NCBI RefSeq assembly: GCF_003334315.1
Contig: NZ_QOWR01000078.1
Source of the DNA: Escherichia coli
Lineage (GTDB): Bacteria; Pseudomonadota; Gammaproteobacteria; Enterobacterales; Enterobacteriaceae
Direction: 5' to 3' (one strand)
Length of the DNA stretch: 14,359 bases
The notes under the pieces were generated by a model, which saw nothing but the letters and a program-made list of their open reading frames with translations, made no database searches and had not been told where the DNA came from. This document shows, in pieces, positions 11,822-13,746 of this stretch. Each line of letters begins with the position of its first letter. Within the stretch, counting starts at the first letter, position 1. The position numbers were made by a program, and so were the translations under genes.

Positions 11822-13240
11822 TTATTTCCCCTTCCGCGCCGCCTCATACGCTGCCAACGTTTGTACTCTCGCTTCTTTGTGCTCGACTATCGGTTGCGGA
11901 TAATCCAGCGTCACACCTGCTTTCTGCGCCCACTTCCACGGCTCATGCACCACTTTCCCTGGCACATCGCGCAGTTCCGGTAGCCACTGGCGGATAAACT
12001 CGCCCTCATGATCAAATTTCTCGCCCTGGGTTGTCGGGTTGAAAATACGAAAATACGGCGCTGCATCGGTTCCGGTTGAAGCGGCCCACTGCCAGCCACC
12101 GTTATTGGCTGCCAAATCACCATCAATCAGCTGCGACATGAAATATCGCTCGCCTTCGCGCCAGTCGATCAATAAATCTTTCACCAGAAAACTGGCTGTA
12201 ATCATCCGTAGCCTGTTATGCATCCAGCCAGTGCTGTTAAGCTGACGCATAGCGGCATCAACAATCGGGTATCCCGTTTTGCCTTCCTGCCAGGCCTGTA
12301 AATGTGCGGGATTGCTCTGCCACTGTACACGATCCGTCCAGGCAATAAATGGACGATGTTTACACAACGAGGGGTGATACGTTATCAGGTGACGGTAAAA
12401 CTCGCGCCAGATCAGCTCATTAAGCCAGACACTACCGGCCCCACCGTCCAGCGCCTGCGGCTGTTCAGCCAACAAGCGATGCAAGCACTGGCGAGGCGAT
12501 AACCCGCCCGTTGCCAGGCTGGCCGACAAACGGCTGGTGCCTTCCACTGCCGGAAAATCTCGTTGTTGCTCATATTCTCCGGCACCGTTCTGGCAAAACT
12601 GGCGTAATTGCGCAATCGCCGCTTTTTCTTCCACCGGAAAATGCGCAGTATCGAAAGACTGACGAGGATAATTCAGCGTAATGGATGGCGCGGGCTTTAT
12701 CGATCCGCTACTACGAACTTTTGGTGCAGCGACGCACTCCGGCATCCCTTCCCGCAGCCGTTTCAGCCAGGCATTCTTAAAAGGCGTAAAGACTTTGTAC
12801 ATCTCGTGATTACCGGTCATCACCGCGCCAGGCGGCAGGATCACGCTGTCATCAAATCCTTCACACACCACGTTACGCAGCGTTCTCTCAACCTGCACAT
12901 CCCGCGCCCGCTCATTCACCTCATACTGATAGTTATAAAAAAGATGAGTAACGCTGTTTTCCGCGCACACCTGTTTAACTATTTCGACGCTGGCGACAAA
13001 GTCATCCACTTCACGGAACAATAAAGGAATACCTTTTTCCGTCAGCACGATTTGTAGCCCATTCAGTTGAGCATTGATAAGTTTAGCCTGACGCGGCGAC
13101 ATGTTATGCGCCGCCCACTGGCGTGGTGTAGCGATATACAACGCCAGCACGCGTGCAGACGAATTGCGGCAGGCGGCAGCCAGTGCGAGATTATCGTGCA
13201 GACGTAAATCCTGGCGAAACCAGACCAGATGGGTAGTCAT
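11822..13240 (-). CDS. phr: Deoxyribodipyrimidine photolyase (CPD photolyase), 472 aa
   Basis: Recognised as E. coli photolyase (MTTHLVWFRQDLRLHDNLALAAACRN...), with FAD-binding region motifs such as WREFY and GWMHNRLR. Confidence 0.95.
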   Translation of the reverse strand: MTTHLVWFRQDLRLHDNLALAAACRNSSARVLALYIATPRQWAAHNMSPRQAKLINAQLNGLQIVLTEKGIPLLFREVDDFVASVEIVKQVCAENSVTHLFYNYQYEVNERARDVQVERTLRNVVCEGFDDSVILPPGAVMTGNHEMYKVFTPFKNAWLKRLREGMPECVAAPKVRSSGSIKPAPSITLNYPRQSFDTAHFPVEEKAAIAQLRQFCQNGAGEYEQQRDFPAVEGTSRLSASLATGGLSPRQCLHRLLAEQPQALDGGAGSVWLNELIWREFYRHLITYHPSLCKHRPFIAWTDRVQWQSNPAHLQAWQEGKTGYPIVDAAMRQLNSTGWMHNRLRMITASFLVKDLLIDWREGERYFMSQLIDGDLAANNGGWQWAASTGTDAAPYFRIFNPTTQGEKFDHEGEFIRQWLPELRDVPGKVVHEPWKWAQKAGVTLDYPQPIVEHKEARVQTLAAYEAARKGK

Positions 13241-13746
13241 AAAACTCCTGAATGGCGCAAGTTAATCACACGCGGCCAAAGTTCGAAATAACGCTGCCCT
13301 GAAAGCCAGGCGTCAGGATAAAGCGCCATATAGTGTTTGATACGCATCAGCGGCGCAAGAAGTGGTTGCTCGCCACGGCGATAACTGTCGATAAGCGCAG
13401 CCAGCTGCTGGCGTTCTGTGGAATCAATATGCGGGCGAAAATAACCCTGAACGTGCATCAAAACATTGGTGTGATCGCGCGGGTTGGCGGGGTGAGAAAG
13501 CAAAACAACTACGCGTTGGCGGTACTGGTTGTAATAGTCATCCAGATTTTGCCACTGGTGAATATCAGCCACGAACGGGCCAAGTTTGCGGTACTCCGGC
13601 TGAGAATGCGCCAGAAAGACGAGTTTATAGCGGCTGTGATAATCGAGAAGCGCCCCGCGCGTTAAGCCATGTTCTTTCAGTCGATGTAACTCATGAAGGG
13701 CAAAGATACGGATTAGGGTGCTGTCATCAAATCGTTGTAGATTCAT
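13237..13746 (-). CDS. ybgA: DUF1722-family protein of unknown function, 169 aa, co-operonic with phr
   Basis: Recognised as E. coli YbgA (MNLQRFDDSTLIRIFALHELHRLKEHGL...). Its stop overlaps the phr start (ATGA, 4-nt overlap). AGGAGC Shine-Dalgarno upstream. Confidence 0.9.
   Translation of the reverse strand: MNLQRFDDSTLIRIFALHELHRLKEHGLTRGALLDYHSRYKLVFLAHSQPEYRKLGPFVADIHQWQNLDDYYNQYRQRVVVLLSHPANPRDHTNVLMHVQGYFRPHIDSTERQQLAALIDSYRRGEQPLLAPLMRIKHYMALYPDAWLSGQRYFELWPRVINLRHSGVL

Follow-up and report, generated by a model that had tools for sequence, protein, structure and literature searches.

Sequence evidence for the origin of the photolyase-linked gene ybgA of Escherichia coli from rudS by loss of the catalytic domain

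Introduction

The photolyase gene phr (phrB) of Escherichia coli is preceded by ybgA, a gene of unknown function within a textbook DNA-repair operon. The question raised by this locus is where ybgA came from and what its product might do beside a photolyase. The locus was analyzed in a stretch of 14,359 nucleotides (nt) of E. coli DNA (contig NZ_QOWR01000078.1), termed here the window. The ybgA gene, its DUF1722 domain and the operon are already known. Comparison with related genomes indicates that ybgA almost certainly originated as a phr-linked rudS gene; as judged by alignment, it is a rudS with an in-frame internal deletion of the TudS (catalytic) domain. The additions made here are the in-place origin from rudS, the several deletion end-points, the purifying selection on the remaining domain and the outright loss of the gene in several genera.

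In RudS, a [4Fe-4S] desulfidase domain, TudS, is joined to DUF1722 (Jamontas et al., Nucleic Acids Res 2024; PMC11417400). The enzyme strips 4-thiouridine (s4U8), a near-ultraviolet (near-UV) chromophore, from tRNA and thereby reduces UVA-induced growth delay. The DUF1722 domain has been assigned to binding of the tRNA anticodon arm by docking and mutagenesis, and rudS genes are frequent in light-responsive operons together with photolyase and LitR (PMC11417400). No paper later than this 2024 work was found that characterizes YbgA. An earlier sequence-only reading of the window had proposed that ybgA is tied to photoreactivation or the light/UV response and that no biochemical function is established. 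That interpretation is partly supported, and it is partly out of date relative to the RudS work: the statement on function stands for the stand-alone YbgA but no longer for DUF1722, which has been the tRNA-binding domain of RudS since 2024 (PMC11417400).

Origin of ybgA from rudS

The product of ybgA is an ATG-started open reading frame (ORF) of 169 amino acids (aa). It matches the PRK10167 model (NCBIfam) at positions 1–169 of 169 with 348 bits against a cutoff of 237, and its residues 41–158 cover the whole Pfam DUF1722 model (PF08349, positions 1–117 of 117, E 6e-35). The closest relatives outside Escherichia are longer proteins that carry TudS as well as DUF1722. Over the C-terminal domain YbgA is 57–68% identical to phr-linked RudS and 50% identical to the phage protein RudS_vir, and it matches PHROG 3275 at positions 162–315 of 319. 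RudS residues ∼2–150 are deleted in the alignment. The three [4Fe-4S] cysteines and the catalytic Glu and Ser that mark the RudS catalytic domain are thus not present in YbgA; there is no PF04463 match in the protein and no tblastn match to TudS in the Escherichia loci. On its sequence, YbgA belongs to the DUF1722/YbgA family but is no RudS, the catalytic domain being absent.

The region upstream of the start codon points to the same origin. A block consisting of (G/T)CTACACTTA, ∼25 nt, AGGAG and ATG is common to Escherichia ybgA and full-length rudS, and it is found in the rudS genes of Citrobacter, Atlantibacter, Enterobacter, Superficieibacter and others. This shared block indicates that ybgA has kept the ancestral promoter element, ribosome-binding site (RBS) and start codon.

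The deletions themselves are in frame, and in the protein alignment every one of them stops in the linker that immediately precedes DUF1722. In E. coli, MNLQR is joined to FDDSTL. In the Citrobacter freundii complex the first RudS residues are retained (MSKRIPVGIRTC... joined to FDDSTL), such that the RudS N-terminus MSKRIPVGI..C runs directly into FDDSTL, as in the E. coli MNLQRFDDSTL. The junction is MC to ENF in Trabulsiella and MSE to SWLEDD in Enterobacter sp. JUb54. TudS loss displays at least five different deletion end-points, which include those of Trabulsiella, the Klebsiella spallanzanii/JUb54 clade and Yersinia. Escherichia and the C. freundii complex have in common the derived junction FD(D/E)(S/N)TL and the derived residues W147 and L156. 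These two groups probably descend from one deletion that was further shortened in Escherichia, as the shared derived positions suggest.

Two other origins were considered and rejected. The ybgA leader has a weak in-frame similarity to TudS (E 0.004–0.3) that could be taken for a decayed remnant of the domain. As this stretch aligns with the conserved rudS promoter and 5′ untranslated region, the deletion is taken to be internal and the similarity is attributed to chance. The RudS paper speculated that ybgA is one half of a split rudS. E. coli is without TudS (PMC11417400). A gene split is rejected for this species because the TudS gene is absent and the ancestral start codon is kept, and ybgA is accordingly regarded as a deletion product and not as half of a split gene.

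Phylogenetic distribution

The survey of co-occurrence proposed in the sequence-only reading was done with one genome per species; it returned 80 Enterobacterales loci, and a Yersinia locus was added separately. The phr gene lies directly downstream of a DUF1722 gene in 80/80 loci and in Yersinia, mostly with spacers of −4 to +24 nt. The predicted enterobacterial linkage is therefore real, but its usual partner is not a stand-alone DUF1722 gene. An intact full-length rudS of 317–346 aa is present in 61 of the 80 loci, and all the cluster motifs (C...CPE...SPSCG) are found in 60 of these 61 proteins. A stand-alone DUF1722 gene is present in 17 loci, and the remaining 2 loci are disrupted. Stand-alone forms occur in six Escherichia species (169 aa), six members of the C. 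freundii complex (184–189 aa), two Trabulsiella (157–158 aa) and a clade of K. spallanzanii, Enterobacter sp. JUb54 and an uncultured Klebsiella (162–169 aa). The Yersinia form, of 161 aa, is found in the order kdp-ybfA-ybgA-phr-(PDEase_II/metallo-beta-lactamase-fold gene)-ybgI. In Pluralibacter the order rudS-phr-ybgI-pxpB is the gene order of the window.

Nor is the linkage obligatory: in Salmonella, Leclercia, Lelliottia and Kluyvera, phr occupies the same position without a DUF1722 gene, and in three of these four genera it directly follows ybfA. Photolyase thus does not need ybgA. A second RudS paralogue, of the Salmonella pathogenicity island 2 (SPI-2) orf319 type, is found in Salmonella, K. 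pneumoniae, E. cloacae, a few E. coli and lambda-like phages; its DUF1722 part is ∼50% identical to YbgA. RudS is therefore present at another site in some species with no copy linked to phr. The lambda-like E. coli phages encode full-length RudS, with a DUF1722 part 50% identical to YbgA.

The overlap of the ybgA stop codon with the phr start codon (ATGA) has a narrower distribution than the linkage. It is present in the loci of all six other Escherichia species, and elsewhere only in one Citrobacter werkmanii locus; spacers in the other genera are mostly 3–24 nt. From this distribution, the overlap is a derived feature of Escherichia that is shared with the one C. werkmanii locus. The ancestral C-terminus, ...LRYGH followed by a stop codon, is lost in Escherichia, and the ybgA ORF now runs through the phr RBS.

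In the C. freundii complex (loci L009–L013, L027, L039 and L061), truncated and full-length alleles are mixed on the Phr tree. C. portucalensis and C. werkmanii, for example, share 92% identity in Phr but only 70% in the DUF1722 domain. This suggests allele exchange with a recombination breakpoint between the two genes or, alternatively, very fast change after truncation.

Stand-alone DUF1722 genes were also found in distant bacteria. These loci are mostly on contigs of 1–2 kb and their neighborhoods are anecdotal: L087 adjoins a MerR-like gene, L085 adjoins SnoaL and SDR genes, and L086 is uninformative. The proximity of DUF1722 to light-responsive genes elsewhere, which the sequence-only reading had pointed out, is supported by published operons (PMC11417400) and by L087, whose DUF1722 gene overlaps the MerR/LitR-like gene.

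The ybgA-phr operon

The features of the locus are listed in Table 1. The ORF downstream of ybgA is the cyclobutane pyrimidine dimer (CPD) photolyase, with a score well above the model cutoff of 506 bits. The plus strand at the junction reads tcat, that is, ATGA on the coding strand, in which the phr ATG (13240–13238) overlaps the ybgA TGA (13239–13237); the overlap had been correctly noted in the sequence-only reading. The phr AGGAG is located inside ybgA, four bases (TTTT) 5′ of the phr ATG, and a second AGGAG precedes the ybgA ATG. A scan of the window detected no terminator-like site between or within the two genes. The layout is thus that of an operon, with a stop/start overlap, the downstream RBS inside the upstream ORF and no intervening terminator. 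Translation of phr may be aided by ribosomes that terminate at the overlap, a coupling we infer from the gene layout. Folding of the RNA around the phr start did not display significant burial of the RBS (z = −1.0). Among complete E. coli genomes the ybgA-phr junction is nearly universal (5423 of 5426), and as far as position 13906 the window does not differ from E. coli chromosomes.

Across Enterobacteriaceae, the element TCTACACTTA is conserved in front of stand-alone ybgA and of full-length rudS alike, and TA[CT]ACTTA is present in 39 of 82 loci in the upstream comparison. The consensus of the sigma-S extended −10 element is KCTAYRCTTAA. TCTACACTTA fits this consensus and lies at a suitable distance from the ATG, and it is predicted to be the ancestral operon promoter, of sigma-S type. 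The candidate came from the cross-species comparison; a generic sigma-70 promoter scan gave nothing upstream of ybgA. A sigma-S-type −10 element is consistent with expression data from E. coli O157:H7, where ybgA and phrB are equally induced at entry into stationary phase (log2 2.27 and 2.15; PMC2241611). Together with the stop/start overlap, this equal induction supports the co-transcription of the two genes that the sequence-only reading had proposed.

Table 1. Features of the ybgA-phr locus, given as positions in the window
Feature	Position	Strand	Description	Evidence
ybgA coding sequence	13237..13746	-	169 aa, stand-alone DUF1722, all-helical, basic (pI 9.7)	ORF list, profile matches, AlphaFold2
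DUF1722-match region (residues 41–158)	13273..13626	-	contains LLAHSQPxYR and NHTNVLMHVQGYFR	Pfam, alignment
N88-P89-R90-D91 codons	13474..13485	-	loop aligned with RudS_KT S243/R244/T246	
ATGA overlap, ybgA stop/phr start	13237..13240	-		sequence read
phr RBS AGGAG	13245..13249	-	within ybgA 3′ end; junction GGAGTTTTATGAC conserved in Escherichia	
phr (phrB), CPD photolyase	11822..13240	-	472 aa	NF007955, 955 bits
ybgA RBS AGGAG	13752..13756	-	common to full-length rudS of related genera	upstream comparison
TCTACACTTA, predicted sigma-S-type extended −10	13773..13782	-	26 nt upstream of ybgA ATG	cross-species comparison
IS1 fragment, cut by window end	13907..14359	-	160 bp upstream of ybgA ATG	NCBIfam IS1 transposase match

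Selection, structure and conserved residues of YbgA

In four stand-alone lineages the ratio of nonsynonymous to synonymous differences (pN/pS) is 0.14–0.21, with binomial p values of 1e-9 to 6e-21 against neutrality. Leaving out the final 20 codons, where ybgA overlaps the start region of phr, does not alter the ratio. In the same pairs of genomes phr has a pN/pS of 0.06–0.15. On these substitution patterns, selection maintains YbgA as a protein. Omega is 0.025–0.064 for the DUF1722 portion of full-length RudS and ∼0.15 for the stand-alone forms.

The AlphaFold2 model of YbgA displays ten helices and is very confident, with a predicted local distance difference test score (pLDDT) of 96.1 and a predicted template modeling score (pTM) of 0.90. 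A structure prediction and a structural-similarity search had both been suggested in the sequence-only reading. Comparison with solved structures and fold neighbors gave no lead and no match to an enzyme or ligand-binding family. The protein has an isoelectric point (pI) of 9.7 and a net charge of +7; the median pI of RudS DUF1722 domains is 9.66. Residue conservation was assessed across 130 diverse members of the DUF1722 family, and the near-invariant residues are all kept in YbgA (F36, H37, K41, G56, Y75, N94, L96, H98, G101, I119, Y122, Q151 and Y153). The motifs LLAHSQPxYR and NHTNVLMHVQGYFR are invariant in an alignment of 11 sequences.

The residues probed by mutation in RudS_KT were mapped onto YbgA via the homologue P0206, not via the RudS_KT sequence itself. 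The DUF1722 positions with the strongest mutant effects are S243, R244 and T246 (PMC11417400), and their equivalents in the window are N88, P89 and D91. The equivalents of RudS_KT N202/N203 fall in the invariant AHSQP motif and are kept in YbgA.

The ybgA region is unusually diverse within E. coli for a core gene. When positions 13180–13800 were compared with the 5426 genomes, 1398 matched at only 90–95% nucleotide identity and 2505 at 95–99%. The diversity may come from recombination beside the RhsC/H-repeat element. Two singleton E. coli ORFs of 595 aa (P0259 and P0260) fuse YbgA to Phr by in-frame deletions, such that YbgA residues 1–133 or 1–146 are joined to Phr from residue ∼13 or 25. 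As these lack the photolyase N-terminus, they may be defective alleles or assembly artifacts.

Possible roles of YbgA

The explanation regarded as best overall, and on balance as probable, is that YbgA is a remnant of rudS that is co-made with photolyase and acts as a non-catalytic binder of tRNA or RNA. In this scheme the usual neighbor directly upstream of phr in Enterobacterales is rudS, a TudS-DUF1722 fusion. In Escherichia an in-frame deletion removed TudS and left the promoter element, the RBS, the ATG, the whole of DUF1722 and the tight junction with phr. YbgA would then be produced together with photolyase from the predicted sigma-S-type promoter, and ribosomes terminating at ATGA would help phr translation. 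Within the stationary-phase and near-UV response, the protein would bind tRNA or RNA as a separate, non-catalytic factor, analogous to other free-standing copies of enzyme-attached tRNA-binding domains. The binding of tRNA or RNA is, by analogy, the likeliest role of YbgA and is put forward tentatively. It is suggested by the published role of DUF1722 and by the retained charge and retained family-invariant residues. DUF1722 mutants of RudS lower s4U removal, and full-length RudS shifts tRNA in an electrophoretic mobility shift assay, both of which support an RNA-binding role (PMC11417400). There is also a weak hint from a screen of the Keio collection, in which the ybgA deletion is listed as hypersusceptible to epetraborole, an inhibitor of leucyl-tRNA synthetase, alongside tRNA-modification genes.

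Several observations weigh against this explanation. YbgA was used as the stand-alone DUF1722 control in the RudS study: the s4U content of tRNA was unchanged on overexpression, no growth on thiouracils was obtained, and the mobility shift of tRNA was measured for full-length RudS only (PMC11417400). With the loss of TudS, constraint has weakened about threefold. The positive charge is lost in two of the stand-alone lineages (pI 6.4–7.3). The loop aligned with S243/R244/T246 is T/S-R-R-N in all 61 full-length RudS proteins, but in Escherichia it is N-[P/R/T/S]-[R/H]-D, and in the window N-P-R-D; the loop arginine, invariant in 61/61 full-length RudS, is a proline (P89) in the window. With the loop degenerate, the RudS mode of tRNA contact may be weakened in Escherichia. 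Finally, ybgA is lost outright in the four phr-only genera, and any role of YbgA is therefore dispensable there.

Other explanations can be weighed against the same evidence. YbgA, and the DUF1722 domain of RudS as well, might be a protein partner of photolyase, for example in chromophore loading or in recruitment to UV-damaged RNA. Adjacency to phr in 81/81 loci that have the gene, with spacers mostly of −4 to +24 nt, suggests matched co-expression, and old database names such as ‘photoreactivation-associated protein’ point in this direction. So does ybgI, now named as a type 2 GTP cyclohydrolase I gene, which adjoins phr in many genera, so that the neighborhood may be a photoreactivation module. 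E. coli photolyase is nevertheless self-sufficient in vitro, and several genera keep phr with the DUF1722 gene entirely lost. The published role of DUF1722 is tRNA binding (PMC11417400). A photolyase partner is considered unlikely. It is somewhat less likely still that ybgA is retained purely for its effect in cis, as a translated leader that carries the operon promoter and brings ribosomes to phr while the protein itself is idle. Such a leader would account for the ATGA overlap, for the phr RBS inside ybgA and for the presence of neither a separate promoter nor a terminator between the genes. It would also account for the in-frame nature of each independent deletion, by which translation still reaches the phr junction, and for the overexpression of YbgA without a phenotype (PMC11417400). 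An open frame, however, constrains stop codons and frame and not amino acids, yet the low pN/pS extends across the ORF and both sequence motifs stay invariant; the phr-only genera, moreover, manage without a leader ORF.

The proposal that DUF1722 has a ligand-binding or catalytic pocket of its own, whose activity is selected in YbgA, is similarly improbable. The most conserved residues are polar or aromatic and all are in YbgA (H37, K41, Y75, N94, H98, Y122, Q151 and Y153). None of these is among the mutants of the RudS study (PMC11417400), and it is the loop targeted in that study that is degenerating in Escherichia. These residues could equally be structural or contact RNA, and neither a cofactor motif nor a fold match to an enzyme or ligand-binding family was found. 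Least probable of all is a functionless and slowly decaying remnant. The catalytic domain is gone, constraint is weaker than in RudS, the tRNA-contact loop is degenerate in Escherichia, the whole gene is lost in several genera, and rare truncated or fused alleles are found in E. coli, all of which speak for decay. Omega is ∼0.15 and not ∼1, however, over a synonymous divergence (dS) of 0.3–1.7 in four lineages (p ≤ 1e-9). Furthermore, the locus is in nearly all E. coli genomes, 7/7 Escherichia alleles examined are intact at 169 aa, and the AlphaFold2 model is very confident.

The tRNA/RNA-binding remnant of rudS is thus the preferred explanation. Beyond it, at least five deletion end-points, always in frame and followed by purifying selection, argue that DUF1722 acts by itself. 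A broader conjecture, rather unlikely as it stands, is that DUF1722 is itself the functional module and that its activity, not s4U erasure, is what is selected in several gut-associated Enterobacteriaceae in which the oxygen-labile Fe-S desulfidase domain was shed independently. DUF1722 could be a non-catalytic holder or reader of tRNA, of UV-damaged RNA or of RNA with the s4U8-C13 cross-link, or it could act through a conserved polar pocket of its own (H37, K41, N94, H98, Y122, Q151, Y153).

The RudS origin makes a testable question of the locus, namely, what a tRNA-binding domain does once the enzyme is gone. If DUF1722 acts alone, this bears on the many bacteria with full-length RudS and on how near-UV damage to tRNA is handled alongside UV damage to DNA. 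If the domain is a module selected for its own activity, RudS would have a second, unrecognized function, and photoreactivation and the near-UV response would have a new RNA-level part. Should YbgA prove inert, the locus would remain a clear case of an operon losing an Fe-S domain while its regulatory frame was kept. In all, ybgA represents a well-framed question on gene function and not a surprising new system.

Surroundings in the window

IS1 insertion sequence fragments are located at both ends of the window (1–453 and 13907–14359). They are inverted, and 450 of 453 bases are identical as reverse complements. The right-hand fragment starts within ybfD, 9 bp from its 3′ end, and takes the place of the remainder of that gene. 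In a base-by-base comparison with E. coli locus L002, most of ybfD is replaced by the fragment and the ybgA promoter region is intact; the fragment is context and lies outside the ybgA-phr operon. The IS1-ybfD junction was found as one contiguous match in 0/5426 complete E. coli genomes. In L002, the only locus inspected for this, an IS1 is within ybfD but further upstream. The 13.4-kb segment resembles either a contig that ends in collapsed IS1 repeats or a stretch bracketed by IS1.

A match to the Rfam small RNA family ES036 (CssrF) is found at 11717–11759 on the minus strand; it scores 75 bits, and the gathering score is 37.6. It is ∼60 nt downstream of the phr stop codon and on the same strand, and CssrF may derive from the 3′ end or terminator of the ybgA-phr transcript. 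The ybgI gene (Nif3 family; 9177–9920, minus strand) matches the NCBIfam model named ‘type 2 GTP cyclohydrolase I’ with 532 bits. In genera without dtpD, ybgI follows phr by 10–80 nt (loci L001, L089 and L091); in the window the two genes are separated by an inserted dtpD, which lies on the other strand. Since the antenna of E. coli photolyase is a folate, rudS, phr and ybgI may together form a single photoreactivation module. The left IS1 is followed by fimbrial usher and chaperone genes of the ybgQ and ybgP type (527–4826, plus strand); the 362-aa ORF at 3738–4826 had no NCBIfam match at E ≤ 1e-20. No match to the PADLOC defense models was found.

Comparison with known systems

YbgA resembles RudS in its homologous DUF1722 domain, its position upstream of phr, its promoter element, RBS and start codon, and its link to UV- and light-related genes. 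It differs in that it has no TudS domain, displays no desulfidase activity on overexpression (PMC11417400) and has a degenerate loop in Escherichia. The other half of RudS is represented by TudS, a stand-alone DUF523 desulfidase of thiouracil and 4-thio-UMP (PMC10611767). TudS and YbgA together indicate that each RudS domain can exist alone, although TudS has no sequence relationship to YbgA. The LitR-controlled phrB-litR-rudS operon of Pseudomonas is similar in that a DUF1722-bearing gene is co-transcribed with photolyase in a light/UV response (PMC11417400). The E. coli operon, in contrast, is without LitR, has a sigma-S-type −10 element and is induced in stationary phase; it is not known to be induced by light. 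Locus L087 resembles the LitR-linked operons, as its stand-alone DUF1722 gene overlaps the MerR/LitR-like gene in the ATGA manner.

Free-standing tRNA-binding domains related to enzyme-attached ones are represented by Trbp111, CsaA and E. coli YgjH. By the analogy proposed here, YbgA would likewise be a small, non-catalytic, stand-alone form of an enzyme-attached tRNA-binding domain, although the folds are unrelated, these proteins having an OB fold and YbgA being predicted to be an all-helical bundle.

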